Shown here one piece after another: positions 31,894 through 48,286 of a stretch of DNA of 64,000 nt; position 1 is the stretch's first letter; every line of letters starts with the position of its first letter. The position numbers were made by a program, and so were the translations under genes. The stretch is from a virus. The stretch covers positions 1-64,000 of the IMG/VR virus record IMGVR_UViG_3300028028_000001; one strand, 5' to 3'. Under the pieces are notes generated by a model. That model was not told where the DNA came from, made no database searches, and worked only from the letters and a program-made list of their open reading frames with translations.

Positions 31894-31931
31894 GCCCCCA
31901 TCGGGATCATCCTGGTGGGGGCGTTTTCTTT
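31894..31931 (+). terminator. rho-independent terminator candidate
   Basis: GCCCCCA (31894-31900) pairs with TGGGGGC (31916-31922). The loop is 15 nt, followed by GTTTTCTTT. Confidence 0.5.
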
Positions 31932-31943
31932 CAGGAGTTCAAG

Positions 31944-33314
31944 ATGCCCTATAAAACCGTTCCGAAGCACCTCCACGGCTTGACCCTGGCCCAGGCCAAC
32001 CGCTGGGGGTCCGTGTTTGATGCGGTTCAGGGCTCCACTGGCGACTCCGAGAAAGCGGCTCGGGTGGCTTGGGGGGTGATGAGGAAGGCTATCATGGCGG
32101 TCCGTGTTCCAGGCCATACCAGAAACGGACACTATGTGAAACCCTACCTGCGGATGATGGACCGCGCCGAGGCCCAGGCGGGACCAGGCGAGCGCATCGT
32201 TTACCGGGCGTCCAACGAGAACGCTCCCGAGGTCGGTACGCACTACACCGAGCAGAAGGAGCACGCGGTCGCCTACACCGATAATTCTGGTTTCGGTGGC
32301 TCAAAGGTCCATCGGTACGCGATCAAGCCGCAGAACGTGGCGGATACGGTCGGGGAGGAAAGGAACGGTCTTCGAGGACTGGCGCTTGCCTACCTGCGGG
32401 CGCTCGACCCTGAAGACGCGGCAGAGGTGAAGGAGAAGACCAGAAGACGACTTGGCGTGGATGACGACGAGCGGATCACGTCGAAGCACGTCGCGCAGGA
32501 TTGGGATGAGCGCGGGCTGACTCATGTCTTCCATGTTCTGGAGCACGATCCCCGGGTTGAACAGGCGATATCGCAGGTCCACGACTGGATCCGGTTTGAG
32601 GATGATTTCCCCGAGGGGTCGATTACCTGGAAGCGTCTTGGTGGAGAAAAGCCGATGAACAAGGGTCTTGTACTGGAGGCCTCAGATACCAACCCCGCAG
32701 TCAAGCGCTGGAAGCAGATCGATCGTGGCCACTCCGAGGAAGGGCACCGCTTCCTTTCGCGGGTCCATGCGGGCGGTGGGCAAATGGCCATCACCCAGGG
32801 CCATGCGGACGAGCCGCACGTCAAGAGGCTCCTTCGAGAAAAGTTGATTCAACTCAAGAGGAACCCGGGTCACCACTGGAACGAGTACACGGCGCACCTC
32901 ACGAAGGAGGGCACGAAGTACCATGAGGCCTATCGAGCCGCGCACGAGCAGACAGGAAAGCAGGAGAGCCTGTTCAAGGGCGTGGTCTGCATCTACATGA
33001 TCCGCAGTGACACGATGAGGAAAAGCATCCTTGAGAAGGCGGTTATCCCGGCGCTCGACATGGTTCCGGAGGACTTGGAGGAAGACGCTACCCCGAACAC
33101 CTGGACCGAGAACGGGTATACCGTCTCATGGCGACGGGGCAAGCGCGGGCATGGGTCGGTTACCTTCGAAGGGAACGGGCTGGCTATGCCGTTCGTGATG
33201 ACCGCTGCGGGCAAGAAGCACGCTCGGATCGTCGCAAGGGACGCGTCGGCGCTGTTGGCGAAGGGCAAGATCCCGCTTCTTGACGGGGTATTCAGGATGC
33301 GGAGAAAGACATGA
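31944..33314 (+). CDS. multidomain protein with ChaB-like N-terminus
   Basis: AGGAG-like Shine-Dalgarno sequence. 'MPYKTVPKHLHGLTLAQANRWGSVFDAV...AARVAWGVMRK' parallels ChaB (MPYK...LP..AQ...F..A...A..VAW). Followed by 'VRVPGHTRNGHYVKPYLR' and an internal 'QESLF'. Confidence 0.6.
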   Translation: MPYKTVPKHLHGLTLAQANRWGSVFDAVQGSTGDSEKAARVAWGVMRKAIMAVRVPGHTRNGHYVKPYLRMMDRAEAQAGPGERIVYRASNENAPEVGTHYTEQKEHAVAYTDNSGFGGSKVHRYAIKPQNVADTVGEERNGLRGLALAYLRALDPEDAAEVKEKTRRRLGVDDDERITSKHVAQDWDERGLTHVFHVLEHDPRVEQAISQVHDWIRFEDDFPEGSITWKRLGGEKPMNKGLVLEASDTNPAVKRWKQIDRGHSEEGHRFLSRVHAGGGQMAITQGHADEPHVKRLLREKLIQLKRNPGHHWNEYTAHLTKEGTKYHEAYRAAHEQTGKQESLFKGVVCIYMIRSDTMRKSILEKAVIPALDMVPEDLEEDATPNTWTENGYTVSWRRGKRGHGSVTFEGNGLAMPFVMTAAGKKHARIVARDASALLAKGKIPLLDGVFRMRRKT

Positions 33315-35122
33315 ACCAGATCGCGAATCAGCCGGGCGTTCATCTTGACCATTTGAAGCATAGGTGGGTTCGAGATGAGGACGTGAAACCAGGCACGCGG
33401 TTTTATGTGCCTCACCATGAGGAATTGGACGTTCGGTCTGTCAAAGACGGGAAGGCAGAGGTGGGTTTGGTTGGCCACCCCATCACTGTGGACGTGCCTG
33501 AAAAGTCGGTGAAGTACTTTCATGCAGACATGCATGGGCAGTTGAACCACAAGCCCGATAGTGGCAACGAGCATGTTGACGCCGTAATTAGAGGGGAGGG
33601 TGAACACCTCGGCAAGGGCAACGACGGGATCGTTTATCGCCACGGGGAGAAAGTGGTCAAGGTCTCAACGACCGTCCCTTACCAGCCCTTCAACCGTGGG
33701 CAGCACAGGACTCCAGAGGAAGCCCTACGGCATCTTCAAAAGGAGCACGAGGCCCATACGGCACTCCAGGGGATTCCTGGCGTGCCCGAAGTGGATGGGC
33801 AAGAGCATGAGGGGCGATACTGGATGGTTAAGCCGCATCTTTCGCCTACTGGCGTGGTCGATGAAAAAGAAGCACATCAGGTGCGCGATTCCGTCCGGGC
33901 CATGCACGCGAAGGGATGGGTTCTGGGCGATACCGTGCAGGTTGGCCGAGACAAGTCGGGCGGCATCCAGTTCATGGACCTCGGGTCTGCTCACAAGTCG
34001 GATAGCGACTACCAAAGAGAGCACGACGAAGAAAGGTTGGCCTCGTTCTTCCATCTTCATCGGTTGAAGTACACGGATCCCCCTGCTGAAGTACAGAAAA
34101 AGGAGCGGGTAGCACGCACTCTCCTGGACATGGCCATCAAACACCAGGATCCGGAAAAGGTCAGGGCGCATCGTATTGAGTGGAAACGACTGGCGAGCGA
34201 ACACAGGATGAACCTCGTCAGAAAAGACGACTTCGACGGGATGATGGCGTTTGCGGACATTACCGATGCGATGGAGAAACGGCTTGAAAAGGCCATCTTC
34301 CTCAACGGCCAAAAGCGCAACCCCAAGGACTTCGACGAAGCCGCCCTATCTCAAGGCATCCGCGTGGAGATGGAGCACACCGACGATCCGAAGATCGCGA
34401 TAGAGATCGCGATGGATCACCTTGCCGAGCGTCCGGACTACTACGATCGGCTGGAAGAGATGGAAGCGAAGCCGATTCAAAAAGCCATCCTCTCCGGGAT
34501 CCGCTTTATGTACCTACTACGCAAGTCTCAGCTCAACCTCTTCGACTGGCACGGCGAACCCGTCCAGCACGAGCACCGCGAGCCGATCCCCACCAGGCCA
34601 CGCATGGGACCGGGCCCCCTGTTCGCCGAAGAGCGAGCGTCGGCGCCCGTGCATGCCCCGCTGCCCCCTATGCCTCCTCCGACCTCGCACACCTTCACCT
34701 CCAATATTCACGTCAAGAGCCACCTTCGGCGCCTGCCGTCGGGTGAAGTGGTGGAGGTAGCCGCGCACGAGAGAACAGCCGATCGGGTAACCCACGACGA
34801 TCCGAAGCCCCGGCAGACGAAGATCACAGAGTACGCCGACAAGCCGGCGCTCTTGAAGCCGCCTTCCATGGCACCGCAGCCCCGAGAGATGCCGAAGCCC
34901 TTCACGGAAGAGCAGTTAAAAGCGATTGGAGAGGCACGGGTGCGCCAAGAGGCGGCCGGCGGAACTCCGGGACAAGGAAGGCCCTGGGTACGATGGCCCA
35001 GCCAACCAGCGCCTCTCTGCTGCGAAAGCGGGGAGACTTGGGCCCGCGCACCGGGCAGCGGCAAAGAGCGCCCCGTGGACCTCGCAGGGCGTCCTGCTCC
35101 GATGGCAGCAACTGGCGATTGA
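33311..35122 (+). CDS. protein-kinase-like domain plus 'EMEHTDDP...DHLAERPDYYDRL' (DUF5661-like) protein
   Basis: Gly-loop 'LGKGNDGIVY', Lys 'KVVKVS', 'MHAKGWVLGDTVQVGRDKSGGIQFMDLGSA' (catalytic-loop and DxG-like). The last roughly 60 codons look non-coding and overlap the next ORF. Confidence 0.55.
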   Translation: MNQIANQPGVHLDHLKHRWVRDEDVKPGTRFYVPHHEELDVRSVKDGKAEVGLVGHPITVDVPEKSVKYFHADMHGQLNHKPDSGNEHVDAVIRGEGEHLGKGNDGIVYRHGEKVVKVSTTVPYQPFNRGQHRTPEEALRHLQKEHEAHTALQGIPGVPEVDGQEHEGRYWMVKPHLSPTGVVDEKEAHQVRDSVRAMHAKGWVLGDTVQVGRDKSGGIQFMDLGSAHKSDSDYQREHDEERLASFFHLHRLKYTDPPAEVQKKERVARTLLDMAIKHQDPEKVRAHRIEWKRLASEHRMNLVRKDDFDGMMAFADITDAMEKRLEKAIFLNGQKRNPKDFDEAALSQGIRVEMEHTDDPKIAIEIAMDHLAERPDYYDRLEEMEAKPIQKAILSGIRFMYLLRKSQLNLFDWHGEPVQHEHREPIPTRPRMGPGPLFAEERASAPVHAPLPPMPPPTSHTFTSNIHVKSHLRRLPSGEVVEVAAHERTADRVTHDDPKPRQTKITEYADKPALLKPPSMAPQPREMPKPFTEEQLKAIGEARVRQEAAGGTPGQGRPWVRWPSQPAPLCCESGETWARAPGSGKERPVDLAGRPAPMAATGD

Positions 35123-35819
35123 CCCTCGCCTGTTGGATGATGAGTTCGCCGACGACTTCCCCGGATACAAGAGCCCGAAGCTCCAGGCGGTCATCCAGGC
35201 CACGAAGGACCACCTGACGAATCACCCCGAAACCGGCGCCGTGCTTTTCTGTGAGTACAACGGCGGGATTGAGGCGATGAAGTCGAGCCTGATCGAGGAA
35301 GGCTACCGCCCCGAGGACATCGGGGTCTATACGGGCAAGGTGTCAAGCCAGCGGAAACGGCGCGACCTTCAGAACGACCTGAACAGCGGCAAGATCAAGA
35401 TCCTCCTTGGCAACACGGCGGCACTTGAGACGGGCGCGAACCTCCAGAAACGCGCTAACTTTGTCGCTCATCTCAACACGCCATGGGCCCCGGATCGGCT
35501 TGTCCAGTCAACCGGGCGAGTCCATCGGCAAGGGCAGGAACGGAAGGTTACCGTATTTCGCCCGACCGGATCCGAGGTAGAAGAACTCATCGAGCGCGTT
35601 GTCTCGCGCAAGCTCCTTCAATCCTCACAGGCGACCGGCGTAACGATGGCCGCTGACTCTCATGTAGCTGTCTCCATGCGCCGAAAGGGCCGCGAAAAGC
35701 TCGACTCCTCCACGATCGCGAAACTGCTGGGAATCGACCCGTCGCTGTTGTCGCAGAAGGGCGATGAAGCAGAACGCGAGGCCGCAGAGATCAAGGAAAT
35801 GAAGAAGAGGAAGAAATGA
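34926..35819 (+). CDS. orphan SNF2/SF2 helicase C-terminal half
   Basis: 'LLRWQQLAIDPRLL', 'SPKLQAVIQATKDHL', 'AVLFCEY', 'ILLGNTAALETGANLQ', 'HLNTPWAPDRLVQSTGRVHRQGQ' correspond to motifs IV-VI. No motif I/II partner lies upstream. TTG start; stop ATGA-coupled to the next gene. Confidence 0.6.
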   Translation: MERHGCAKRRPAELRDKEGPGYDGPANQRLSAAKAGRLGPAHRAAAKSAPWTSQGVLLRWQQLAIDPRLLDDEFADDFPGYKSPKLQAVIQATKDHLTNHPETGAVLFCEYNGGIEAMKSSLIEEGYRPEDIGVYTGKVSSQRKRRDLQNDLNSGKIKILLGNTAALETGANLQKRANFVAHLNTPWAPDRLVQSTGRVHRQGQERKVTVFRPTGSEVEELIERVVSRKLLQSSQATGVTMAADSHVAVSMRRKGREKLDSSTIAKLLGIDPSLLSQKGDEAEREAAEIKEMKKRKK

Positions 35820-37537
35820 ACGACTCCGAAGCCACGAATCTCCTGCGCGCCTTGGCCCCCGTCGGTGGGTCTCCTGGTGGGTTCGACCCCAAGAAGCGCC
35901 GCGTGCTCGTCATGCGGCTTCATCGGTATCTGGTGGAGGATGGCGGCTACATCCCAGCGTGGCTCAAGAACGAGGCGGCCGAGATGCGGAAGGGCGTGAT
36001 CCTTTACGTCGAGTTGCACAAGGCCGCTCAACTTGGGCTCTTCGGTGGTCAGGGTCGGGAGTTTCGCCCGGAGGTGCCGAAGCCGCATGGTGGTGGTAAG
36101 CCTCGTGGGCCGCAGCAGACCGGGATGACCTCGGGCGGGCTCTTCGGCACGGTCTGGGTCAAGGACCATGATCGGGTGGTGAATGGGCACGTCGAGCACG
36201 TTGACGGTCATGAGAGGAAGGTGGTGGGGAATGTCCACGCGCCCACGTTGACAGGAAAGGAGGAAGGTGGTAGGGTCGAGAGTGAACCTTCTCCGAAAGA
36301 GGAAAGCATGACCCGGCACCCTGACGCTCCGGAAGGATTCGAACCGGTTGACATGTCCATTCATGGAGCCCATAAGGCACCATCGAACGAAAAGGGGCAA
36401 CAGGGCTCTTTCAACTACTGGTATCCGACGCTGGAATCGGCTCGGGCAGGCCAGAAGCACCATGAAGAGCAGCAACGAGTAAAGGGGGATATGAAGCGGG
36501 CGCGGGAACATGAGAAGATCGCTCGCGGATCGGCAAAGTTCATTGAGGCTGAAACTCAACGAAGAGCAAAACTCGCGGCGGCAGAGATTCGGCGCACCGC
36601 TGTTCCTTTTGTTCACCCGAGTATCTATGAATATCGGGACTACATCAGAGAGCAGGGTGGTTTCGTGGAAGATGGTGGGTGGAAGGTGCCAGCCGCAGCT
36701 CACGCCGCCATTACGGAGCACATCGAGGAGCGGAATCGGAAATTGGCCATCAAGCGCCAAACGAAGCCATCAGTAACCCCACCGGTTCCGGCCGCACTGA
36801 AATACATACCCATACAGCACTCGAACACCTACGACTATCGGGAAGACATCAAGAAAGCCGGTGGTCGGTGGGACAATAACCAGCGGGTCTGGATGGTCCC
36901 GGAAAACAGGCATGCCGAACTAATCGCCAAGATGACGCCTGCGCCTGCGCCCCCTCCCGCAGCTCCTTTGCCGACGATCGCACCAGGAGAAAAGGAATAC
37001 ACCAGATTTGAGAATGGATCGCGTCGTATGAAGCCCGCTCATCCGTTGGCTGTCGGAGACGTGGTGTTTCGAGGGGATGGCGCAAACCGAACTTACCAGA
37101 CGGTCACGAAAGTAAGGCCTTCGCTCTTCCGTTCCGAAAACGATCAGGAGGACTTTGGAGAAACCGGAAGAGGTGCAGGTTGGTATCATCCGTATACCGT
37201 TCGACCTGCTACTGAGGAGGAATCGGCCAACCTCCGCGGCAAGCACGCAGAAGCAGACGCAAAGGTCAAGGCTGCGACTGCCGCAAAAATGGCGCTACAG
37301 TCAGCCATCCAGACGGCGGAATATCCGAAGAAGGCTGAACCATCAGGAGAGAGCATCAAGATTGGTCAAAATGAAACAATTCAGGTTGAGCCAGACCTTC
37401 AACACGCGTGGCACATCAAGTATAACGGTCGTGATGGCGACAACTGGGCCTACAACAACCTGGGCGGCCACTCGATCGCGCATCGGTTCCCAATGACTCC
37501 TGAACTATCAGGACACATCGAAGCGCTGAAAGTCTAA
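35816..37537 (+). CDS. multidomain protein with QLGLF module and two tandem 'GGxWD...WxVP' (DUF5710-like) domains
   Basis: 573 aa. 'YVELHKAAQLGLFGG', 'WVKDHDRVVNGHVEHVDGHERKV'. Repeats 'YEYRDYIREQGGFVEDGGWKVP' and 'YDYREDIKKAGGRWDNNQRVWMVP'. Confidence 0.6.
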   Translation: MNDSEATNLLRALAPVGGSPGGFDPKKRRVLVMRLHRYLVEDGGYIPAWLKNEAAEMRKGVILYVELHKAAQLGLFGGQGREFRPEVPKPHGGGKPRGPQQTGMTSGGLFGTVWVKDHDRVVNGHVEHVDGHERKVVGNVHAPTLTGKEEGGRVESEPSPKEESMTRHPDAPEGFEPVDMSIHGAHKAPSNEKGQQGSFNYWYPTLESARAGQKHHEEQQRVKGDMKRAREHEKIARGSAKFIEAETQRRAKLAAAEIRRTAVPFVHPSIYEYRDYIREQGGFVEDGGWKVPAAAHAAITEHIEERNRKLAIKRQTKPSVTPPVPAALKYIPIQHSNTYDYREDIKKAGGRWDNNQRVWMVPENRHAELIAKMTPAPAPPPAAPLPTIAPGEKEYTRFENGSRRMKPAHPLAVGDVVFRGDGANRTYQTVTKVRPSLFRSENDQEDFGETGRGAGWYHPYTVRPATEEESANLRGKHAEADAKVKAATAAKMALQSAIQTAEYPKKAEPSGESIKIGQNETIQVEPDLQHAWHIKYNGRDGDNWAYNNLGGHSIAHRFPMTPELSGHIEALKV

Positions 37538-37539
37538 TC

Positions 37540-37818
37540 GTGCTGCTTCTTTTCGTTCTCCTCCTCTCCTGCGCCCCAGAACCGCCAGAAGTCTGCAATA
37601 TGGTCTCCGTGCCCTGGGAGCGCTCGACGCTCAAGGCGATCGAGGTTTACCTCGACTACCTGCCCTGTGAGGCCACGATCGGCTGCGAGTCGCTTAACGG
37701 GACCGTGACGATTTACGACCTGGAGCCCGTTTGCGGAGTCGCCTGCCGGGTATACGGATCCTGCCGCCCGGACGAAACGCCGCTGGAACTTCGATACTCC
37801 GCGTGCGACTGCTCATAG
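37540..37818 (+). CDS. Cys-rich lipoprotein (92 aa)
   Basis: GTG start. 'LLLFVLLLSC' is a lipobox-like signal (L-L-S-C), followed by 7 further Cys. Confidence 0.5.
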   Translation: MLLLFVLLLSCAPEPPEVCNMVSVPWERSTLKAIEVYLDYLPCEATIGCESLNGTVTIYDLEPVCGVACRVYGSCRPDETPLELRYSACDCS

Positions 37819-38625
37819 CAGCGTAGTTTGCTCCCGCTCCTCATCCTGGCCCATTGGCAGACCTATCTGAACGCCAGCGGCCTCGATGCTCTCCAACCTG
37901 CGCGCCGCGATGTCGAGATAAGCCGGCTCCGTCTCGATCCCGATGTACTGGCGCCCAGAGAGTAATGCAGCCTCTCCGATGGCCCCAGAACCTGCGAAAG
38001 GGTCAAGGACCGTGCCGCCATGGGTCACGACGGAAACGAGCCACGCGCAGACCCTTGGGGGCTTTTCGGTGACGTGCTCGCGGTCCCTTGAAGACGCCTC
38101 GGTGACGTAACCGGGCAGGCAGCCGATCCCTGGTCTGTCGGTCGGCATCGGTCCAAGGGTTCCGACGGCGATGAATTCGCCCGGGTTCCAGAACCAGCCC
38201 ATCCGAGGCCTTGACGATCCGGGAGGCTTCAACCACGGGTGGATCCCGCGAAGGATGAACCCGCCCACTTGGAGCGCATCACAGACCGCGCCAACCTGCC
38301 GCCAGTCGGAAAAGACGCATGCCGGACTGCCGGGGAGCATGACCCGAGTCGCACGGGCCGCAATCTCCCCAAGCCAGATCGTGAAGGATCGCTGGTCTCG
38401 GTTGTCGCCTGCGAAGTTCGGAAGGTATTCGGCCTGCGCGGAATCGGAGCTGAGATACTTCTTGCGGGTGTCTAGCGTTCGATCACCACGGAAGGCACCC
38501 CCCGAAGAGTACGGGGGATCCGTGATCAGGGCGTCAACGCGGACGCGTTCGCGTTCGAGATCCGCGAGTACGAACAGGGAGTCGCCGTTGTAGAGTTTCC
38601 AGGTCTTTCCTTGGGCGTGTAGCAT
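37813..38625 (-). CDS. DNA methyltransferase (N6-adenine or N4-cytosine; DPPY before FxGxG)
   Basis: 'DALITDPPYSSG' (motif IV) lies near the N-terminus and 'VLDPFAGSGAIGEAA' (motif I) near the C-terminus. Only minus-strand gene in the right arm. Its stop overlaps the lipoprotein stop (TCATAG). Confidence 0.85.
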   Translation of the reverse strand: MLHAQGKTWKLYNGDSLFVLADLERERVRVDALITDPPYSSGGAFRGDRTLDTRKKYLSSDSAQAEYLPNFAGDNRDQRSFTIWLGEIAARATRVMLPGSPACVFSDWRQVGAVCDALQVGGFILRGIHPWLKPPGSSRPRMGWFWNPGEFIAVGTLGPMPTDRPGIGCLPGYVTEASSRDREHVTEKPPRVCAWLVSVVTHGGTVLDPFAGSGAIGEAALLSGRQYIGIETEPAYLDIAARRLESIEAAGVQIGLPMGQDEEREQTTLL

Positions 38626-38790
38626 GGTGGAAGTGTAACACGTTGCATGGAGAGGTCAAGGTGGCACGGTCTTTGCTACACCTTTCAGTGAAAGGAAAGA
38701 CCATGGAAACCCTCATCGCGGCGGGATCGGCTCCGGCCATCCTCATGTCGAGTTCTTCGTTCCCGTCTACCGAATCCACGCGAGCAAGCC

Positions 38791-39537: not shown

Positions 39538-41871
39538 ATGCACCTCTATCGCCCCGTTCGATCCGCTGACGGTTCTCTTTCGCTACGTGCCTCGGAACTG
39601 GTCTTCCGTCGCCCCGATGTGGCCCCCCGCGAGCTGCGCAAGGCCCTTCGTCTTCCGATCGGCATCGGCTGGCGTGACATCGACCAGGACGTGGACGGTG
39701 GCAAGGAGAAGAGGATCGTGGAGTGGGGAACGGTCTCCCGCTACTGGCCCTCACTCGAAGCCGCCATGGCCGCAGAACGGCGCTACCTGATCCTCGGGTC
39801 GCAGGATGACGGCTACGGGATTCCCCAGGTCGAGCGGCCCGGGTCGGTCCAGGCCTGGGAAGCACGGGAGCGCGCCCGTTCGGCTCATGAGATGGTGATC
39901 TACTACTCGCCCGACGGGTGGACGGCTCTTGCTGGTGACGAGCACGGTGGGCAGGTCAAGGTGCTCGACGACTGCCGCGCGTACCGCTGGCCCTCGCTCA
40001 TGGACGCGCTCTCTGCTGAGACGGCGTGGAGAGAGAAGGCGGACGCCGCGACCCTCAAACAGGTCCAGGCCGAAGCGCGCGGTGGAGAACCGAAGCCTTC
40101 GTTCTACGGTTACGGCGCGTTCATGGACGCGGCGCGGAAGTGTGCGGAGTTCATGGCGCTTGCGGATCCGGGTGTCGGGGCGCCTCTCGTTCGGTTCACG
40201 GTGGACCTTCGCAAGGCCGCTCAAATGGGGTTGTTCGGAGGGGAGACACGGATCCCGGAGCGGTCGCATCAAATGGGCCTCTTCGGTGGGACCGCGCACG
40301 TCAAGGCGCATACCCGGGTGGTCCATGGGCATGTGATCGAGGTGAAGGCCCATGATCGGGAGGTCGAGCATGGGGCGAACCATCCTCCCGAGGTGATGGG
40401 GCACTCGGCGCCGGGACATCGGGTGGATGTGGATGCGAAGGTGGCATGGCCAGAAGTCAAAGAAGGCAACCTGTACCGCATCCATTTCGACACCCGCGAC
40501 GAAGGCCAGCCGCACGGCGACTATATCGCCAAACGAGCCTCGACGAATCATCACCAGTTCGAGAACCTTCTCAACGGCGCCCCCATGATGTTGAACCGGG
40601 ATGCGGAAGGGCAGGGGAAGCACAGTCTGAGCGGCAAGGAAGGTGTCAGGATCCGAAGCGTTACAGGGTTTGAGGATGCTCTGGATGAGGCGAAAGCCAA
40701 GCATGAGATCATCCGAAAGGACGCGGAACGGGCGGCTTTGGCACCGAAGGTTGAGGAGAAGCCCTCCATTTCCGTCGATCCGGCCCAAATCGTCAAACCA
40801 GCGGACATTCAACCACCGGGCCCCATTCGTGACTACACCGACATGAAGCCATCGGTCGGTATGAAGGTTCACGGGCACTACATGCGGTCACCCTTCACCG
40901 GCACGGTCCATAACATCGAATCCGACTCAAGCGGATACCCTGGCACCCAGAACGATCGCAGGTTGTGGGTGAAACTTGATAGCCCCCTGGTGGTCCCGGA
41001 AGGTGATTCGTCATACCCCGCCGGTCACGTTCGGCGCGAGGCAGGGGAAAGCATCATTTTCCACGGGGAAAAACAGGCGTCAGGACATACACGGGTTCAT
41101 CATGACACCCATCAAACCCTGGATTCGGTAGATAATCCGCTTCCTGGGTTGGTGCCCTTCGTAACAGACTACGATTCACGAAAGAAAACCCATACCCTGT
41201 CCGTGAACGGGAAGATGTCGAGCCATCCGACGCATGAAGCCGCGTTTGCTGCGGGGATGGAGGAGGTCAAGCCCACAACGCAACTTATCACCGAAGATGA
41301 GCTGAGAGAGCAGACCATCAAGCCCCCACCCAAGCCCACCCTATCCGTCAAACCTGCGGAAATCGTTCAGGTTATACCGGGTATGGAGCACGAACATCCG
41401 GACTTTCCAGGCCACCGGTTGACCCGTGTGCAAACCCGGGAGAGGGACATCAGTTCCCGTGGTCGGGGACATGATTTATACACAATGATTGCCGGCCCAG
41501 AAGATGACACAATGCACTGGAGCGACAAGCATGTTGGCCATGAAGTAATTTCGGACGATTATCCAAGGTCAAGGTCCATACGATCAAGCGATAGACATGG
41601 TGAAACCTATGCGCATATGCCGCTCAAGCCCGGTAGTGTGATTATGCGTCTCAAAAAGAATACCGACGGGACAACCCAGAAGTCTGCGTTAGTTGTTCCG
41701 GAAAGTGGAGGAGACACATACCCAAGACACAAAGATCAACCACTGGACGCCGATAGTTTGCCGTCTGCAACGGTAACCTCACGCAAAGCGGCTACTGGAT
41801 GGGAAACTGTAGTAGATATCCCCGAAGGGATATCGGGTGTCAAGGCTGGTAAGCGAATTTACCGAGGATAG
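39538..41871 (+). CDS. large multidomain protein (777 aa) with two QMGLF modules
   Basis: 'TVDLRKAAQMGLFGGETRIPERSHQMGLFGGTAHVKAHTRVVHGHVIEVKAHDREV'. I recognised nothing in the remainder, and the distal part has lower GC. Confidence 0.6.
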   Translation: MHLYRPVRSADGSLSLRASELVFRRPDVAPRELRKALRLPIGIGWRDIDQDVDGGKEKRIVEWGTVSRYWPSLEAAMAAERRYLILGSQDDGYGIPQVERPGSVQAWEARERARSAHEMVIYYSPDGWTALAGDEHGGQVKVLDDCRAYRWPSLMDALSAETAWREKADAATLKQVQAEARGGEPKPSFYGYGAFMDAARKCAEFMALADPGVGAPLVRFTVDLRKAAQMGLFGGETRIPERSHQMGLFGGTAHVKAHTRVVHGHVIEVKAHDREVEHGANHPPEVMGHSAPGHRVDVDAKVAWPEVKEGNLYRIHFDTRDEGQPHGDYIAKRASTNHHQFENLLNGAPMMLNRDAEGQGKHSLSGKEGVRIRSVTGFEDALDEAKAKHEIIRKDAERAALAPKVEEKPSISVDPAQIVKPADIQPPGPIRDYTDMKPSVGMKVHGHYMRSPFTGTVHNIESDSSGYPGTQNDRRLWVKLDSPLVVPEGDSSYPAGHVRREAGESIIFHGEKQASGHTRVHHDTHQTLDSVDNPLPGLVPFVTDYDSRKKTHTLSVNGKMSSHPTHEAAFAAGMEEVKPTTQLITEDELREQTIKPPPKPTLSVKPAEIVQVIPGMEHEHPDFPGHRLTRVQTRERDISSRGRGHDLYTMIAGPEDDTMHWSDKHVGHEVISDDYPRSRSIRSSDRHGETYAHMPLKPGSVIMRLKKNTDGTTQKSALVVPESGGDTYPRHKDQPLDADSLPSATVTSRKAATGWETVVDIPEGISGVKAGKRIYRG

Positions 41872-41874: not shown

Positions 41875-44800
41875 ATGTTCACCCCCTGCAAGTGCTCCAA
41901 AGGCTGCAAGGCCCACGCCATCATCACAGCGCTCGACATGGACGGGACCACCTACCCTGTGCGAGTCCCCTATGAGCACCGCTACTCCTCGATCGGCTGG
42001 GGCGACCGTCCGCGCGTGCGGTTCGGTGATTCCGTAGCCGTCGAAGTGGCGCGCGGAGAGAAGGGCGTCCAGGCTCTTGACGAACTCGGCAACCTTCACC
42101 GGTTGAACCATGGCGCGTTCTCCACCTGGATTCCGGAAAGGAAGGGCAAGGCTCTCAAAAAGGCGGAAGTCAAAGCCGGTCAACGATGGATCACGGTCCA
42201 CCCCGGCGGCGAAGGCTCAACGGGCGTCCCCATCCTGATTCAGGAGGAGAAGGACGGAACCCACCGAGTCGTGGCAGGCGCGGGCGGGAAACTGACGCAC
42301 CTCCGGCTTGAGAACGTCAAGAGCGCGGACGAATACGCCAAGTCCAAAGCCGACAAGAAGGCCGCAAAGAAAGAGAAGGACAAGACCGCTCCGAAGGAAG
42401 TCAAGGAGACCAAGAAGGAAGCCCACGAGAAGAAGCGCGAGGCCGAGCGCCAGTTCGTCAAAAAGGTGAGCACGAAACTCGGGGGAGTCTCCGAGGATCG
42501 CAAGCGTGACGAATCCGAATCTCCCGCCGTCGCACGTCGGCTTGACGCGCAGCATCATCGAAAGCAGGTCAACGAGGCCAAGAAGCGCGCCCACGGAGCC
42601 ATGCAGGCGGTCGTTGCAGAGCGGACCGGGCAGGAGAGGGCAAAGGCGCTCACCTCCGAGGATACTCCCGAGGTCTCCGCTCACGTTCAGGAAACGATTC
42701 GCGCAGAACTCGACGACGAGGAAGCCGCTCAGAAGGCGCGCAAGGAAGCCCGCGCGCCAAAGATGATGGCCTCCCGGGCCGTGGACCCCGGAGCGCAAGA
42801 GAAAGCCGTCGTCCATGCCGTTGAAGCGGTCAAGCAGGCCCCTGAGCAGCTCGACAAGACACTTGAAGCGCTCGGCGGGCGTACTGACTCGGGCGAGGTT
42901 CTCCGGCTCTCTGTCGTGCCTGCCGTGGAGGCGAAACGCCGGTCCCTGCAAGCGCTCCAGGACGCCCAGATCATCCATGAAGCCCTATCGAACGGGCCCC
43001 CGAAAGACGAGAAGCAGCAGGCGATCGTGGAGCAGGCCCTGGGCGGCGCGAAACTCGGAACCGAGGAGGCCAAGGAAGCACTCCAGACCGCCATGGTCTC
43101 GAAGGTCAACGAAGCCGAGCGGCACGAAGTCCAGTCCAGGAAGCTCGACCAGATCGCACGGGACAAGGGCGAAGACGTGGCCGACCGTGCTCTCCGGGCG
43201 ACCGACGCGGCAAGGGCCATCGCTCGCGAAACACAGGAAGCGCGGCGCCTGGGACTCGACAATCCCGAGAAGACGCCCCTTACTGTGCCTGAAACCGATG
43301 AACTCATGGACGTGGTGAAGGACCTCCAGGACCTGAAAGCGAAGACCCGAGCCCTGAAGAACGTCGTCAAGGACGCGGAAAAGGGCAACTTCGATCGGTC
43401 GCGCCGTGCGTTCAAGATGGACGTTCAAGCGGCCCCCAAAGACGTGGAGATGTCGATCGAGGAAGAGGTTCAGCGCTCACTCACGGAGCAGCTCCTCGGC
43501 GCGGTCAAGACCGATCGCCCGGAGTACATCCAGGGCGTCACCGCTGGGCACTATGACGCCCTCGCGGATGTCGGCTTGCAGATTGGCGGCCAGCGCTACC
43601 TGGACCGCCCCACGGTGGACGCTCTCGGCGCGAAGAATGCCGCGATCCTACTCCGGTATGGGCTTGACCAGGACGGGCACGATATGGACGCCGTTCGCCA
43701 GGCCGTGGAAGAGTCGCACGTTGACGCGGTGAAAACCGAAGCCGCCAAAGCCATCGAGAAAGCGCGATCCTACGTCCCTGGGTTGGTCCACGAAGTCGAT
43801 ACAACCGAAGACGCCGAAGCAGCAATGGCGCACTTGGACGCCCACGAATCCGAGATCGTCTCAGCGCAGAAGGCCCTTTCCTCGGCGATCGGGAGGCTCG
43901 AAGGTACGGCTACCCTTGGCCAGGCGCTGCGCGACAAGATGCCCGATAGCCTTTCCGTTCGGGGCACCTCTCTTGAATCGTCTCAGCAGTGGGTTCATTC
44001 GCTCGGGCTTCACCCTGCCGATTACGAGGTGAACGCTGCACGGAACGAGATTACGATCCCCCGCCGATCGTGGGACAAACTGCTATCCCGAGACTCGCGC
44101 GAGGACATCGACAACCGGCGCGTGGTCAACGAGATCAAGGCAGGTCAGCACGACATCAAGGGTTGGCTTCCTCCCGGCATTGCCTATCGAGAGGCCTCCA
44201 CGTTCACCGCGCCCGTTCCCAGCGCTCCTCGCATGTGGGAACCGCTTTCGTTCGATGGCGACCTCGACGAGGCCATCAAGACACACGTCGGCGCCCGGTT
44301 GGCATCCGGTGAGCATATCGGGGAGATTGCGTCTGACATCTCCTCGGAAGGTGTTGCTTCGCAGGCCCCGAGCGCGAAGGAATACCGCGCGGCACTCGAG
44401 CGGCACTTCCCTCTCTACAAGGAAGGTGGAAAGGAACGGCTCACCGAAGCCCTGGCGGCTCTTGGACCTCGGCCGGAGAACGAGAACGAGGCGATCGAGT
44501 GGGACCGAAAAGCCATTAAGGCGGAGCAAGCGGAAAAGGTAGGCCTGACGCACTTCGCCGACAAGTGGGAGTCCTGGGCCCAGGACTACATGGAAAAGAA
44601 GCACGGTGGCGAGGGAGCCTATCACTCGCAGAACCTGCATCCCGAGGACGTGGCGACCCGTGAGGCCATTTTCCGGACGCTGGCGGATCACCCGGAGGGC
44701 AAGATCGCCTTCAAGCCGTCGGGTCAACTGACACCGCAGGAAGAGGGGGTGATTCGGGACCGGTACTATCAGAGGATGGGGATCGACCCGAAGGTGAAGG

Positions 44801-47577
44801 TTGACGAGGCAAGGTTCCAAAGGGAGATGGCCCAGGCCAGTATGCCGGAAGGGCAGTGGGAGACCATGGTCAAGGAACACGAAGGAGAAGGCATAACTCC
44901 AGGGCAGGCCAAGGCCCGAGCCATGTCTCACCTTGGAGAGAAGGTCAAGAATGAGGCGTATTACCAAGAACTGACGAAACCATGGGACAAGACGGCTGGA
45001 ACTGCATCTATAGACGAACCAAAGGATGTAAAACAACGTCGCCAATACCTGACGCGCGAACTCGCCGCACTCGGGAAAGAGCCCGACCGCCAAGACAAAG
45101 AGGCCAACCAGAAATGGCAAGAAGCGCGTAATGCTGTTTTTGAAAAGGCCGACACCGATTCTGGCAAGGAAGAACTTGATGAGACCAGTCCCGAATACCG
45201 GGCTTGGCAAAAACGACGTGATGCTGTTCTTGCCCGTCATCCGCGAGCGGGTATGCAAAGCGCAATCGATAGTCTCGACAAAGCCGATCCGGAGTACGCA
45301 AGCAAAGTCGAAGCCATCAAACAGGACGCAGCGACCGCCCCCACCGCCTGGGGCAACTACGTTGAAGCGCACGGTTCGCGGCAACTGGCGATCGAGGCCC
45401 TGCAAGATGAGATGAGGGGCGAATTCGTCAAGACGTACCAGGAGCACCACGGAAAGGTCACCGGGAACCCGCTACGGGTGGGCGTTCAGGACGTAACCAA
45501 CAAGGCGCGCCATATCCGGGCAACAGGATCCCCCGAGGAAATCGCGCAAGCCAGGGCAGAGGAAAGGTCCAGGCTATCCAGTCTCCAGAAGAGGCAGGGC
45601 GGCGGATTTACCGAGATGGGCGGTGCAGGGTCGGCGAAAGCCCTGTTCACAAAAGCACTTGAACAAGACGAAATCGACAAGTCAAGTCAACTCGCTATGT
45701 TCGGATCGGCTACCTCCTCGGTGGCGGACCTCCCCGAAAAGAAGATCGAGCCGAAGACCGGCCAGCGGTGGAGTCTCGGAACCCGCGCGGAATCGCAACT
45801 TGAGAGCGTCATCAATGGCGGCCTGGGCCAGCAGTTTCAACCAGGAAGCCCGATCCGGCTTTTCGGTGGGCTCAACATGGATGGCGATCGAATCCACCAG
45901 CAGCGGGTTCTTCGCCAACTCGATCGGGTCAAAAGGATGGCGGCGCTTCTCGGCACGGGCGCGGGGAAGTCGCTCACCTCGATCGCAGGGTTCACCCAGG
46001 CGCACGCGAAGGGTGAGGCATCCCACGGGCTCTATCTGGTCCCTGCCGCAGTCCAAGACCAGTTCGGCGGCGAGATGTTGCGCTACACGCAGCCCGGGAA
46101 ATACAACTGGGCAACGGGTGGCGGAAAGAGCCACGCGGAACGGGTACGGATGCTCAAGGATCCGTCTATTCATATGCGGGTTATGACACACCAGTCCTTC
46201 CGGGATACTGCCCTAAAACTCATGGCAGACCACCATGGTCGGACTACCGAGAAGATGACAGAGGACTTCGGAAAGGCAGACCCAAAGACCCGCGCCCGGT
46301 GGATGCGTGAGGCCTTCGATGCCCACGGGATCCCCCGCCACTTCGTCTATTATGACGAGGCGCACACCGCGACCTCCGAGAACGAGAAGAGCGCCTCTCT
46401 GACTCATGACGTTGCGACGGCGGTAACGCATCCGTCGAACGCTACCCATCTGCTTCTCGGGACCGCCACCCCCACGAAGAACAACACCGGAGAGATGCAC
46501 TCATGGGCCTCGCTACTCGATCCGGACAAGTACGCCGATCGGTGGAAGTTCATGCAGAACTTTGGGAGGGAAACCGCCTGGAACCCGAACGCGATCCGTC
46601 AAGAACTTGGGCACCGGGTTTACACCGCCAGAATCGACCCCGAAGGAGTATCCCGAACAGACACCGACAACCCGACCGTGGAGGAAAAGGAAGTCCAGAC
46701 TGGTGAGAATATGTGGGGTCCAACCTACGAAAAGCAGAAGGTGAAGTCTGCCGGCAAGCCGATCGAACTTCACCCTACCCAGAAGGCCCGGGTAGATGAG
46801 ATCACGGCGGCTTATGAGCAGGCATCCACCTCGTTCAAGAAGGGCCATGTGGACGTGGAGAGCATCCGGAAAATCAACCCGGCACCGTTCGAGGGTAAGA
46901 CCGATGAGCAGGCCCAAAGCATCGCGCGGAACATGATGAAGGGCCTTGGCTTCACCCGTGACGCGGCGCTGGAGCGGGCGATCAACCGCTCGCCTGTGGG
47001 CCAGAACGCGAAACTGGACGCCCTGGCCTCTGTCGTCCAGCATGACCTCGCGCAGAACTGGACCGATCGGAAAGGCAACGCGCGCAAGGGGAAGGCCTCG
47101 ATCATCTTTTCGGACTCGGCGCAGGATGGAAAACTCATCAACCAGCACCTTCGCTCTCTTGGCGTCCGCTCGGCTTTCTATCACGGTGGGCTTCCGAACG
47201 AGCAGAAAGAAGCCATCCGCACCGGGTTCCAACCCGAGCAAGGCGAGCCGAAGCACGACGTTATCGTCGCCACGTCGGCGGCCGAGGCGGGTCTGAACCT
47301 CCAACGGGCAAGCGTGCTGCACAATTACGACGTGCCCCAGACTGAGAAGAGCCACGCGCAGAGAGCCGGGCGAGCGTACCGGCAGGGGCAACTTGGCGAC
47401 GTGGAGATTCACAACTGGCACACGAACACGGCGTTCGAGCGTCGGGCGCTTCAACTGCTCAAGGAGAAGCGGTATCTCGCTTCCGTGTTTCAGACTCCGA
47501 TCGGCCATATGGACGACACAGGAACGGGCCTGCGTTATACTCGGATCATCTCACGCAAACATGAGGCTGCGGCATGA
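41875..47577 (+). CDS. giant polyvalent/DarB-like protein (1900 aa) with C-terminal SNF2-type helicase
   Basis: N-terminal 'RWITVHPGGEGSTGVPILIQEEKDGTHRVVAGAGGKL'. A long Lys/Glu/Ala coiled region follows. Helicase motifs 'LLGTGAGKS', 'VYYDEAHT', 'LLLGTATP', 'QRAGRAYRQGQ' start at about 45,900. Confidence 0.8.
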   Translation: MFTPCKCSKGCKAHAIITALDMDGTTYPVRVPYEHRYSSIGWGDRPRVRFGDSVAVEVARGEKGVQALDELGNLHRLNHGAFSTWIPERKGKALKKAEVKAGQRWITVHPGGEGSTGVPILIQEEKDGTHRVVAGAGGKLTHLRLENVKSADEYAKSKADKKAAKKEKDKTAPKEVKETKKEAHEKKREAERQFVKKVSTKLGGVSEDRKRDESESPAVARRLDAQHHRKQVNEAKKRAHGAMQAVVAERTGQERAKALTSEDTPEVSAHVQETIRAELDDEEAAQKARKEARAPKMMASRAVDPGAQEKAVVHAVEAVKQAPEQLDKTLEALGGRTDSGEVLRLSVVPAVEAKRRSLQALQDAQIIHEALSNGPPKDEKQQAIVEQALGGAKLGTEEAKEALQTAMVSKVNEAERHEVQSRKLDQIARDKGEDVADRALRATDAARAIARETQEARRLGLDNPEKTPLTVPETDELMDVVKDLQDLKAKTRALKNVVKDAEKGNFDRSRRAFKMDVQAAPKDVEMSIEEEVQRSLTEQLLGAVKTDRPEYIQGVTAGHYDALADVGLQIGGQRYLDRPTVDALGAKNAAILLRYGLDQDGHDMDAVRQAVEESHVDAVKTEAAKAIEKARSYVPGLVHEVDTTEDAEAAMAHLDAHESEIVSAQKALSSAIGRLEGTATLGQALRDKMPDSLSVRGTSLESSQQWVHSLGLHPADYEVNAARNEITIPRRSWDKLLSRDSREDIDNRRVVNEIKAGQHDIKGWLPPGIAYREASTFTAPVPSAPRMWEPLSFDGDLDEAIKTHVGARLASGEHIGEIASDISSEGVASQAPSAKEYRAALERHFPLYKEGGKERLTEALAALGPRPENENEAIEWDRKAIKAEQAEKVGLTHFADKWESWAQDYMEKKHGGEGAYHSQNLHPEDVATREAIFRTLADHPEGKIAFKPSGQLTPQEEGVIRDRYYQRMGIDPKVKVDEARFQREMAQASMPEGQWETMVKEHEGEGITPGQAKARAMSHLGEKVKNEAYYQELTKPWDKTAGTASIDEPKDVKQRRQYLTRELAALGKEPDRQDKEANQKWQEARNAVFEKADTDSGKEELDETSPEYRAWQKRRDAVLARHPRAGMQSAIDSLDKADPEYASKVEAIKQDAATAPTAWGNYVEAHGSRQLAIEALQDEMRGEFVKTYQEHHGKVTGNPLRVGVQDVTNKARHIRATGSPEEIAQARAEERSRLSSLQKRQGGGFTEMGGAGSAKALFTKALEQDEIDKSSQLAMFGSATSSVADLPEKKIEPKTGQRWSLGTRAESQLESVINGGLGQQFQPGSPIRLFGGLNMDGDRIHQQRVLRQLDRVKRMAALLGTGAGKSLTSIAGFTQAHAKGEASHGLYLVPAAVQDQFGGEMLRYTQPGKYNWATGGGKSHAERVRMLKDPSIHMRVMTHQSFRDTALKLMADHHGRTTEKMTEDFGKADPKTRARWMREAFDAHGIPRHFVYYDEAHTATSENEKSASLTHDVATAVTHPSNATHLLLGTATPTKNNTGEMHSWASLLDPDKYADRWKFMQNFGRETAWNPNAIRQELGHRVYTARIDPEGVSRTDTDNPTVEEKEVQTGENMWGPTYEKQKVKSAGKPIELHPTQKARVDEITAAYEQASTSFKKGHVDVESIRKINPAPFEGKTDEQAQSIARNMMKGLGFTRDAALERAINRSPVGQNAKLDALASVVQHDLAQNWTDRKGNARKGKASIIFSDSAQDGKLINQHLRSLGVRSAFYHGGLPNEQKEAIRTGFQPEQGEPKHDVIVATSAAEAGLNLQRASVLHNYDVPQTEKSHAQRAGRAYRQGQLGDVEIHNWHTNTAFERRALQLLKEKRYLASVFQTPIGHMDDTGTGLRYTRIISRKHEAAA

Positions 47578-47738
47578 AGATGAGAAAGAAAAAAGTAGAC
47601 TTCTCAGCGGTAATCCGGCCAGTCAAAGAAGAAACTTCCTCGCACTTCGGATCGCGTGTCGTCGATATACGGTGTGTAGATTTCTCGGTTGACTCGATCC
47701 GTGCGTTTATCAAGCGGATGGAGCAGGAACCACTATGA
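47574..47738 (+). CDS. small protein (54 aa; below ORF-track cutoff)
   Basis: My translation gives MKMRKKKVDFSAVIRPVKEETSSHFGSRVVDIRCVDFSVDSIRAFIKRMEQEPL. ATGA overlaps at both ends. Low GC. Confidence 0.4.
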   Translation: MKMRKKKVDFSAVIRPVKEETSSHFGSRVVDIRCVDFSVDSIRAFIKRMEQEPL

Positions 47739-47977
47739 ACGACCGACAAGAGATGATCAAACTCCTCGCGTCTCTGGAGGCCAACAAGCAGGCAATCCAG
47801 GGCGCAAGAAAGGACCTGGCCCGGGAATGCTCCGAGCGTCAGGATGCCGTGTCTCCTGCCCTGGAAACGATCGGCGAGCACCCCGACATGGAAGACGCGG
47901 GGATCCTCGGGCACCGCTACCACAAGACGATTCTGGCCGATCACCATGCGCTTGGCGAACTGGCGCGCCGTGGCTGA
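47735..47977 (+). CDS. hypothetical protein (80 aa)
   Basis: ORF track; coupled. Confidence 0.5.
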   Translation: MNDRQEMIKLLASLEANKQAIQGARKDLARECSERQDAVSPALETIGEHPDMEDAGILGHRYHKTILADHHALGELARRG

Positions 47978-48206
47978 CCTGTCGGCGTTCAAGATCCGAT
48001 GTCCTGCCTGCGGTTACGATATGTGGGCCGTGCGCGCGGGTCAGTGGACGCTCAAAACCGCTATTATCCGGGTGGACGACGGGGTCTTCATTGCACGATG
48101 CCCAGAAGGGCGGTGCAAAGGTGAAGCCGTGGTCCCGATGGTTCTCCTGCACTCCGACGCTACCCGCCGAATTGTGAGAATTCGAAAAAACAGCGCTGAG
48201 GTATAG
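47946..48206 (+). CDS. zinc-ribbon protein (about 86 aa)
   Basis: Part of ORF 47844..48206. 'CPACGYDMW...CPEGRC'. The start is either ATG 47946 or GTG 47970. Confidence 0.45.
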   Translation: MRLANWRAVADLSAFKIRCPACGYDMWAVRAGQWTLKTAIIRVDDGVFIARCPEGRCKGEAVVPMVLLHSDATRRIVRIRKNSAEV

Positions 48207-48244
48207 CCGGGCAGTCTGGTCCGAACCTCTCACGGCCCACCCAC

Positions 48245-48286
48245 GGCCCTACCCGGATCCCCTCCCGGGTAGGGCCTTCTTTTGTT
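48245..48286 (+). terminator. rho-independent terminator
   Basis: Perfect 12-bp stem: GGCCCTACCCGG (48245-48256) with CCGGGTAGGGCC (48265-48276). The loop is 8 nt, followed by TTCTTTTGTT. Confidence 0.7.

Follow-up and report, generated by a model that had tools for sequence, protein, structure and literature searches.

A stretch of viral DNA of 64,000 nucleotides (nt; positions 1 to 64,000 of IMG/VR record IMGVR_UViG_3300028028_000001, hereafter the window) carries the head genes of a tailed phage in two blocks, separated by an island of genes that lies between terminator-like hairpins at 31894-31922 and 48245-48276. The island encodes a 1900-amino acid (aa) protein with an SNF2 ATPase, and four proteins encoded ahead of it, otherwise unrelated, have a conserved element in common that we call the tag. 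Our analysis makes it rather probable that the region is a head-module effector island, in which the 1900-aa protein is fixed and tagged effector modules vary. All window features described below are on the forward strand unless stated otherwise.

Head Genes on Both Sides of the Island

The window is part of a ~97 kb metagenome contig (ENA ERZ27247322), the proteins of which are filed at NCBI under a Thermoleophilia metagenome-assembled genome. The host of the island is a tailed phage of ~97 kb, and its cultured relatives are myoviruses. Primase, DnaB-like helicase and exonuclease are encoded on the reverse strand, apart from the island, and the late genes run on the forward strand from ~18 kb onward. 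To the left of the island lie the genes for the large terminase (TerL; 23067-24962; phrog_675, E 1e-60), the portal (26152-27861; phrog_11117 and phrog_12) and, directly after the portal gene, a 377-aa MuF-like head morphogenesis protein (27858-28991). To the right, 48282-51379 holds the genes for a head maturation protease of 265 aa, an acidic, coiled-coil, scaffold-like protein of 225 aa and the major capsid protein of 533 aa (49778-51379; phrog_752, E 3.5e-22). A first-pass annotation, made from the sequence alone, had described the head gene order as split by an island in this way, and the matches to PHROGs and to homologues bear it out.

The 377-aa protein itself has no Pfam match. Among 17 of its homologues, phrog_2468 ('head morphogenesis') is matched by 12, phrog_115 ('minor head protein') by 8 and, weakly (E 0.014 or worse), PF04233 (Phage_Mu_F) by 4; because of these matches the label MuF-like is reasonable. 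A PDB search with the family profile returned designed repeat proteins only. The counterpart of the 265-aa protein in a related locus, L007, has 53% identity to it and matches phrog_1028 ('head maturation protease') weakly (E 0.0043); the same profile is matched by the positional counterparts in Bordetella phage PHB04 (4e-70), in a Nitrosomonas sp. Nm132 contig (1.8e-39) and in Morganella phage Mecenats66 (2e-24). Nothing meaningful was found for the protease among PDB sequences. A nucleotide search of GenBank phages with 24 kb gave no match, nor did a tblastn search of the same phages with the capsid protein or single-protein scans of IMG/VR with the MuF-like and capsid proteins, and a tRNA scan found no tRNA genes.

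Four Island Proteins Share a Tag

The tag is 35-120 aa long and is common to the island proteins of 456, 603, 573 and 777 aa. It consists of a hydrophobic strand, the motif Q-x-x-L-F-G/D, a linker of variable length and a beta-hairpin with the pattern 'V-x-V-K-x-H-x-R...G...V-x-V-x-x-H-x-R'. BLAST detects a segment common to the 573-aa and 777-aa proteins (E 4e-10), which contains 'AAQ[LM]GLFGG' and 'V.VK.H.R.V.GHV..V..H.R'; the tag reads 'AAQLGLFGG...VWVKDHDRVVNGHVEHVDGHERKV' in the former, and in the latter two QMGLFGG motifs precede 'AHVKAHTRVVHGHVIEVKAHDR'. Similarly, the 603-aa protein has 'LLRKSQLNLFD', a linker and then 'IHVKSHLRRLPSGEVVEVAAHER', and the tag of the 456-aa protein is 'MAVRVPGHTRNGHYVKPYLR'.

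We observed four copies of the pattern Q..[LM]FG in the window, all of them in the island, compared with 0.18 expected, and none of 2000 shuffles reached four. Furthermore, a hidden Markov model (HMM) built from other genomes only placed the 777-aa and 603-aa proteins at the top of the 586 reading frames of the window (E ~1e-6; 1.1e-6 for the 603-aa protein). No Pfam model covers the tag, and its newness is judged against Pfam only. The term 'packaging signal' does not occur in the text of the phage polyvalent-protein survey of Iyer et al. 2017 (PMC5512222).

The first tagged gene (31944-33314) encodes the 456-aa protein, with the tag at ~aa 24-83 (nt 32013-32192; tag HMM E 4e-6). By tblastn, its first 54 aa and aa 242-375 resemble the product of the first island gene of L006, a 516-aa protein with a weak DUF7218 match. 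The 456-aa protein belongs to no Pfam family, and the ChaB-like N-terminus once assigned to it was not recovered, as PF06150 gave no match at E values up to 10. The 603-aa protein (33311-35122) had been read as a kinase-like and DUF5661-like protein. The second half of this description holds (DUF5661 at aa 346-387, E 1.5e-11), and a full internal tag follows at aa 379-502 (nt 34445-34816). The kinase half is unconfirmed: the motifs GKGNDG (GxGxxG)...VVKV...DLG in the N-terminal region were picked out by eye only, Pfam and PDB sequences gave no kinase match, and a single-sequence AlphaFold model of this region was useless (predicted local distance difference test, pLDDT, 39).

The 573-aa protein (35816-37537) carries the tag at aa 26-146 (nt 35891-36253; tag HMM). 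It had been described as having tandem DUF5710-like domains, of which one is matched just below threshold (25.8 vs 26.5 bits) and the second is seen by eye only. The 777-aa protein (39538-41871), with its tag at aa 203-286 (nt 40144-40395; E 1e-6 with the HMM from other genomes), is an orphan whose sole match among 5.8 billion protein clusters is itself. Searches of PDB sequences with the 456-, 603- and 777-aa proteins returned nothing meaningful.

Between the genes for the 603-aa and 573-aa proteins lies an open reading frame (ORF) at 34926-35819 that encodes the C-terminal lobe of an SNF2 ATPase only (a lone Helicase_C in Pfam), as the first-pass annotation had noted. It overlaps the end of the 603-aa ORF by ~200 nt in another frame (34860-35140), and the codon-bias signal in the GC content of third codon positions (GC3) changes frame at ~34860-34980. 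The Helicase_C ORF aligns to aa 872-1043 of a complete SNF2 protein in L002, and its homology to a DarB-like protein of L003 starts at nt 34989, where the last part of the 603-aa ORF still runs in the other frame. From these alignments, the ORF looks like the remnant of a tag-SNF2 module that has lost its N-terminal ATPase lobe, and at 34860-35140 a former tag-SNF2 gene seems to have suffered an internal deletion and a frameshift, unless the assembly is at fault. We considered whether the 603-aa and Helicase_C ORFs are joined by programmed frameshifting and rejected the idea, since the SNF2 N-lobe is absent and a decayed or deleted gene is simpler.

The Tag Recurs in Related Loci

When iterated over the loci examined, the tag HMM produced 114 matches in 14,112 frames. 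All but one (113/114) are on the late-gene strand, and the remaining one is a PHB04 gene that is co-oriented with the PHB04 late genes; the opposite-strand frames, ~1.0 million residues, yielded no false match. The tag is present in 56 of the 80 IMG/VR loci. By placement, ORFs upstream of the SNF2 gene account for 74 matches, the SNF2 gene itself for 7 and effector-like ORFs just behind it for 14. Among the distinct tags, 56/82 lie within 50 aa of the first Met and 26/82 are internal. Many copies consist of the hairpin only ('LKAHVKGYTRKDGTVVKPH').

The commonest form, 'M-I-I-F-L-K-S-Q-L-A-L-F-D-A-P-V-H-V-A-A-H-V-R-K-D-G-T-V-V-K-P-H-V-R-I-Q-K', opens ORFs of ~2000 aa. It is present on the DarB homologue of PHB04 (ATI15645), whereas P1 DarB is without it. 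PHB04 carries three tagged proteins, and a tagged HD protein (ATI15650) is encoded there. The tagged proteins are diverse: 32 sampled members carry, between them, 20 Pfam families at E 1e-4 or better, including InPase, SNF2, LPD1, N6_Mtase/Eco57I, ART-PolyVal, DarA_C, RadC, topoisomerase I, C5 methylase and NUDIX.

The tag also lies at internal module junctions of fused homologues of 2400-2800 aa, namely P0054 (aa 311 and 516), P0102 (two places), P0059, P0053, P0048 and P0076, and L018 has it at aa 10 and 847. The element that starts separate genes in the window thus marks internal junctions in the fused proteins, in agreement with the earlier description of the island as a protein split into coupled genes. 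P0102, which was found with the tag profile, bears InPase, DUF5661, ART-PolyVal, LPD1 and HATPase_c. A full HMMER scan of 1.84 billion representatives with this profile recovered two proteins beyond the window's own; the number is small because the motif is too short for a database of that size.

In another locus, L028 (IMGVR_UViG_3300031578_000150), the segments 6195-8354 and 15547-18470 encode small proteins (144-187 aa, one of 432 aa), each of which opens with a tag hairpin, e.g., 'RVRAHRRRTSGGKVSQVKEHARR'. This cluster looks like a family of tagged mini-effectors.

A Fixed SNF2 Protein Behind a Variable Cassette

In the 1900-aa protein (41875-47577), small beta modules are combined with a long helical stretch and a C-terminal SNF2 ATPase (aa ~1340-1840). 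The ATPase assignment of the first-pass annotation is confirmed by profiles for both RecA-like lobes (PF00176, PF00271 and PF04851), and the motifs GTGAGKS, DEAH and QRAGRAYRQGQ, read from the sequence, are intact, so that the enzyme appears to be active. The 'RWITVHP' string, which had also been pointed out, belongs to a module 'RWITVHP...G.PVLI...GGAGGKL' at aa ~100-145 with invariant R104, W105, I106, T107, P110 and G135-G138. The same module occurs deep inside the longer proteins P0054, P0048 and P0076, which bear ART-PolyVal, InPase and LPD1. A confident AlphaFold model of the N-terminus from a 30-sequence alignment (pLDDT 86) has three small beta modules followed by long helices. Foldseek found nothing significant for it in the PDB, the best hits being small barrels of the SPT5 KOW and Spindlin types (E 0.015-0.2), and the modules are predicted to be small and beta-barrel-like. 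Upstream of the SNF2 domain, at aa 1272 (nt 45688-45705), the protein contains QLAMFG. In most close and several distant homologues, Q-x-x-[LM]-F-G is kept ~20-35 residues before 'GER.(S/T)LG.RAE.Q', with no hairpin behind it. Some homologues (P0048, P0059) contain intein and LAGLIDADG domains (PF14890, PF14528).

Homologues of the 1900-aa protein (n=76) are mostly 1500-2000 aa long, and many are encoded on contigs of 80-98 kb. A scan of IMG/VR with an alignment of the N-terminal part found 116 stretches that encode a relative. The SNF2 homologue comes shortly before the genes for protease, scaffold and capsid in L002, L003, L005, L007, PHB04 and Mecenats66, and, where that side is covered, a MuF-like or minor-head gene is upstream of the SNF2 gene (L004, L006 and Mecenats66). 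The MuF-like gene and the protease-scaffold-capsid block are the conserved left and right anchors of the locus. The homologues of PHB04 and Mecenats66 are only 24-39% identical to the 1900-aa protein, and the distance between the capsid proteins of these phages and that of the window is too great for tblastn.

What lies between the anchors differs from relative to relative. In SRR5011273_2305, TerL, portal, three small genes and the MuF-like gene are followed by genes for 135, 388, 516, 714 and 267 aa. Next come an InPase+SNF2 protein (1438 aa), topoisomerase IB (512 aa) and the SNF2 homologue (1830 aa), and two small genes separate the last of these from protease, scaffold and capsid. The L002 island holds a 1204-aa InPase+LPD1 protein and a second SNF2 protein. 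In the Nitrosomonas sp. Nm132 contig, Zeta toxin, HD_4, InPase and a 2119-aa methylase+SNF2 protein precede the 1900-aa homologue. In the PHB04 island, the genes ahead of the SNF2 homologue (ATI15643) are annotated in GenBank as (p)ppGpp synthetase/hydrolase, Ser/Thr phosphatase and N-6 DNA methylase (2097 aa); the 2097-aa protein is a true DarB homologue, which BLAST aligns to residues 29-1637 of P1 DarB. In Mecenats66, the minor head protein gene is followed at once by the SNF2 gene, and then by the genes for an 88-aa protein and the protease; extra island genes are absent. The genes preceding the SNF2 homologue thus range over InPase, LPD1, ART-PolyVal, Zeta toxin, HD_4, topoisomerase IB and the DarB homologue, partners of a kind familiar from phage polyvalent proteins, and, apart from the partial match of the 456-aa protein and the Helicase_C relic, the upstream island proteins of the window have no counterparts in the relatives examined. 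Because its position before the protease is kept across the relatives, the SNF2 protein is a conserved core gene of the structural module, and by the same sequence comparison the cassette ahead of it is variable. A comparison of relatives had been suggested along with the first-pass annotation, and it supports a variable cassette between conserved MuF-like and protease genes.

Three further features of the relatives were noted. The Nitrosomonas contig (L003/L032, FNDH01000009, 87.5 kb) is a phage-genome-sized contig in an isolate assembly with the same head module; either a prophage maintained outside the chromosome or phage contamination may account for it. Among the PHB04 genes is one for an integrase-family protein. 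In L004/L005 (Logan SRR27197517_7540, 80.5 kb), both contig ends are inside the island, one 1.8 kb past the MuF-like gene and the other 3.4 kb short of the SNF2 gene, without overlap; the assembly may break there owing to repeats or to population variation in the cassette.

Untagged Genes and Island Boundaries

Between the genes for the 573-aa and 777-aa proteins lies a block (37540-39511) in which the tag HMM has no match. It encodes a Cys-rich lipoprotein with the lipobox LLSC (37540-37818), a DPPY N6/N4 DNA methylase on the reverse strand (37813-38625; N6_N4 in Pfam/PHROGs, with the DPPY motif), a zinc ribbon with CPRC...CPDC (38791-39006) and a DUF1643 protein (probably 39014-39511; E 4e-36). 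All four had been named before; the lipoprotein and the zinc ribbon are read directly from the sequence, and the methylase and DUF1643 are confirmed by profiles. For DUF1643, PDB sequences gave no meaningful match and a literature search gave no function. These four genes look like moron-type insertions. The earlier set of about ten effectors is accordingly narrower: the four tagged proteins fit it, and the four untagged, moron-like ones do not.

Downstream of the 1900-aa gene and coupled to it are three small genes (47574-48206) for proteins of 54 aa, 80 aa and ~86 aa, the last a zinc-ribbon protein; the 80-aa protein is conserved in L002 and the ~86-aa protein in L005 and L007. The genes of the island had been thought to be chained by ATGA overlaps. 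We found such overlaps at four junctions only (33311, 35816, 47574 and 47735). The methylase gene has its own sigma-70-like promoter site at 38659-38632; therefore, the island is not a single operon.

The hairpins at the island edges (left, 13 pairs and a T-run; right, 12 pairs, 10 of them G-C, and a T-run) are by far the strongest two terminator-like sites of the terminator scan within 29.5-49.4 kb, which substantiates the terminator bracketing proposed earlier. Weak terminator-like sites in this interval are at chance level (20 observed vs 19.5 expected), and a third strong hairpin lies 3' of the capsid gene (51397-51421). From the second hairpin to the start of the protease gene, we see no promoter.

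Genes for proteins of 124 and 819 aa occupy the space between the MuF-like gene and the first hairpin (28992-31877) and are outside the effector set. The 124-aa protein gene adjoins the MuF-like gene, and a homologue also follows MuF in L004. The 819-aa protein (29418-31877) is rich in Thr, Ala, Gly and Val, has a capsid-like codon bias (GC3 0.82) and a strong terminator behind its gene, and matches no family except, faintly, DUF5881. It is probably a structural or decoration protein made in large amounts, which may decorate the head or form a fibre. Because of the codon bias of this gene, the left hairpin may be merely an attenuator behind an abundant structural gene. The gene at this position varies by relative (388 aa in L006, 296 aa in L004).

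In the early region, 301-1506 on the reverse strand encodes a 401-aa protein that matches phrog_6247 ('DNA topoisomerase'). The idea that it corresponds to the island topoisomerase IB of L007 was rejected, as the two have no similarity.

A Model for the Island and Its Alternatives

Could the tag be an address that sends the island proteins into the phage head? On balance, we think it rather likely that the island is a split version of a phage polyvalent protein, the tagged modules of which are packed into the prohead. The term split reflects sequence comparison: modules that are separate or half-fused genes here appear concatenated elsewhere, in 2400-2800-aa proteins ending in an SNF2 module. 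Packaging in the capsid is suggested by the head-module position, by the DarB and DarA_C homologues among the tagged proteins, and by the precedents of P1 and phi24B. By the same analogy, our favoured reading of the tag is a putative capsid-targeting element, possibly also a processing site. The wider proposal that it is a portable capsid-targeting and processing signal throughout a large, mostly uncultured group of tailed phages is more tentative, a serious possibility that falls somewhat short of probable.

In this model, the island genes would be transcribed late, together with the head genes. The tag would then dock the modules in the assembling prohead, on the scaffold, the MuF-like protein, the portal or the inner capsid wall, and trimming or separation of modules by the head protease may take place at the tag as well, as in the T4 capsid-targeting sequence. 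Finally, the proteins would exit along with the DNA, and in the next host they would be the first to act, countering restriction and other defences. The untagged methylase, lipoprotein, zinc ribbon and DUF1643 protein would probably act inside the infected cell and not from the virion.

Several points weigh against this model. No virion proteomic or genetic data for any member of the phage group were found in the papers searched (the Mecenats66 paper has none), so the case for packaging and injection is built on analogy and on where the genes lie. In sequence, the tag is unlike the capsid-targeting sequences of P1 DarB and T4, and in 24 of the 80 IMG/VR loci the available DNA contains no tag. 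The loci over which the tag HMM was iterated are also those that it scored, and the strand control guards against random matches, not against a shared motif of other function. In Thermus phage Lalka27a (L010, PQ109076, 7621-12768), a 1715-aa homologue annotated as 'putative helicase' is encoded between tail and baseplate genes, in the tail module instead of the head module; the Lalka paper covers a separate 2074-aa DarB-like protein, not this homologue (PMC11437467). A strong terminator stands before the protease gene and no promoter is visible for the head genes, and the transcription model is therefore incomplete. Finally, the Q-L-x-L-F core of the tag resembles a bacterial sliding-clamp-binding motif, which would point to a host target and not to the capsid.

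An alternative that we consider unlikely is that the island proteins are made late and stay in the infected cell as enzymes of DNA handling or anti-defence, which might, for example, protect or process the replicated DNA before it is packaged, with the tag as an oligomerisation or regulatory element. The SNF2 protein, the methylase and the topoisomerase of the relatives all act on DNA, the lipoprotein and the reverse-strand methylase in the island are clearly not packaged, and the literature gave no virion data for the island proteins. But adjacency to the MuF-like and protease genes is kept across very distant relatives, the partner domains are among those treated by Iyer et al. 2017, and the tag is borne by homologues of DarB and DarA_C, whose P1 counterparts are proven head proteins.

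It is less probable still that the Q-L-x-L-F motif recruits the proteins to the host or phage DNA polymerase beta clamp after entry, the hairpin being a DNA- or clamp-contacting element. The tag variants QLGLF, QLALF, QLSLF, QLNLF and QMSLF presumably fit the consensus for clamp binding, QL[SD]LF, as well as the motifs in Pol II and UmuC of E. coli, and they are often found beside linkers rich in Pro, Lys and Glu, as short linear motifs are. The conserved unit, however, spans 35-60 aa and includes a fixed hairpin with a hydrophobic strand ahead of it, unlike a free pentapeptide, and many copies are the hairpin only. Enzymes without a DNA role (InPase, ART, NUDIX and a ppGpp hydrolase-like HD protein) carry the tag as well, and there is no loaded clamp on incoming phage DNA.

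We give little credence to the view that the tag is mainly a cleavage or processing site, for the head protease or a self-cleaving step, with the N-terminal tags as leftovers. This view draws on the position of the tag at module junctions of fused proteins (P0054, P0102 and L018), on the head maturation protease encoded right after the island and on the T4 capsid-targeting sequence, which according to PMC9024508 is both address and cleavage site. A pure cut site, however, needs no retention at the extreme N-terminus, where 56/82 distinct copies are found. Cleavage is also compatible with the packaging model, not opposed to it. Lastly, ordinary replication or recombination machinery, or random inserted genes without a common role, is hardly credible and already largely refuted: a helicase-family ATPase and a methylase are present and one SNF2 gene is decayed, but primase, DnaB-like helicase and exonuclease form a separate opposite-strand module (0.3-17.9 kb), four unrelated island proteins have the tag in common and synteny is kept in more than 100 contigs; the first-pass annotation had raised ordinary replication genes as an alternative.

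Injected proteins decide the first minutes of infection, and few have been identified because they have no common signature. If the tag that we propose as a capsid signal is one, the full set of injected proteins could be read from sequence, including the orphan 777-, 573- and 456-aa effectors, and fused polyvalent proteins would be chains of independently addressed modules. The tag would then mark packaged-cargo genes, point to new counter-defence enzymes among unannotated proteins, and explain how giant polyvalent proteins are assembled from modules and broken up. It might also serve to load foreign proteins into phage heads, as the P1 and T4 targeting sequences do. The idea is directly testable in PHB04, because this phage is cultured, has tagged proteins and has a known host, Bordetella bronchiseptica.

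Comparison with Known Systems

The phage-type polyvalent proteins described by Iyer et al. 2017 (PMC5512222) are likewise large effectors encoded with portal-terminase head genes. In that catalogue, SWI2/SNF2 ATPases, InPase, LPD1 and ART-PolyVal recur, and the proteins are predicted to be packaged and delivered with the DNA. The island of the window is similarly placed among the late and virion genes of a portal-terminase phage, between portal and MuF-like genes on one side and protease, scaffold and capsid genes on the other, and distant homologues of its 1900-aa protein (P0048, P0054 and P0076) are fused to InPase, ART-PolyVal and LPD1. The kinship with polyvalent and DarB-type proteins seen in the first-pass annotation is thereby upheld, and sequence comparison supports assigning the island to the phage polyvalent/DarB-type effector loci. 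It differs in that its modules are mostly separate genes, and the 456-, 573- and 777-aa proteins match no catalogued domain. No metallopeptidase (MPTase) hub domain was found in the window, and the window proteins have at most one recognised domain each (SNF2, DUF5661 or the sub-threshold DUF5710); therefore, the island is a split relative and not a strict polyvalent protein.

The P1 Dar system (DarB, Ulx, DarA, Hdf, DdrA and DdrB) also has a giant SNF2 protein near portal and head-processing genes, with a small gene directly downstream, and the islands of PHB04 and the Nitrosomonas contig hold a true DarB homologue and a weak Ulx-like gene. The window differs in having no DarB orthologue, and no DarA or Hdf homologues were found in it. 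When examined for membership of the DarB family (methylase plus SNF2, full-length similarity), the PHB04 2097-aa protein qualified and the 1900-aa protein did not: it has no methylase domain and aligns to P1 DarB over only 97 residues, in the helicase C-lobe. The N-terminal 30 residues of P1 DarB suffice to send a reporter to the capsid (PMC9024508), and they are unrelated in sequence to the tag. The 2811-aa polyvalent protein of phi24B (gp47) was found in virions by proteomics (bioRxiv 10.64898/2026.04.10.717836). Packaging of DarB-like proteins has already been proposed for the Lalka phages of Thermus (PMC11437467), in which a relative of the 1900-aa protein is encoded as well.

The T4 internal proteins offer the closest functional model for the tag, the T4 capsid-targeting sequence. 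There, a short N-terminal peptide common to unrelated cargo directs the proteins into the prohead and is removed by the head protease; PMC9024508 cites Mullaney and Black for the double function as address and cleavage site. The T4 signal differs in length, ~10 residues compared with 35-120 in the tag, its cargo is small and there is no homology.

The closest cultured layouts are those of Bordetella phage vB_BbrM_PHB04 (Phabquatrovirus) and Mecenats66, which have the same head arrangement with the SNF2 protein immediately before the protease. PHB04 has a multi-gene island like that of the window, whereas Mecenats66 has none, and the annotations of both name the SNF2 protein just 'helicase'. 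The Mecenats66 paper names Pseudomonas phage Dolphis as a relative and leaves the SNF2 protein undiscussed. The island had been called undescribed, which is true of its particular effectors, such as the 777-aa orphan, but not of the layout, as this is present in cultured phages such as PHB04. The island is thus not unique: it is a split layout of the known phage polyvalent/DarB-type loci with new effectors and a conserved tag.

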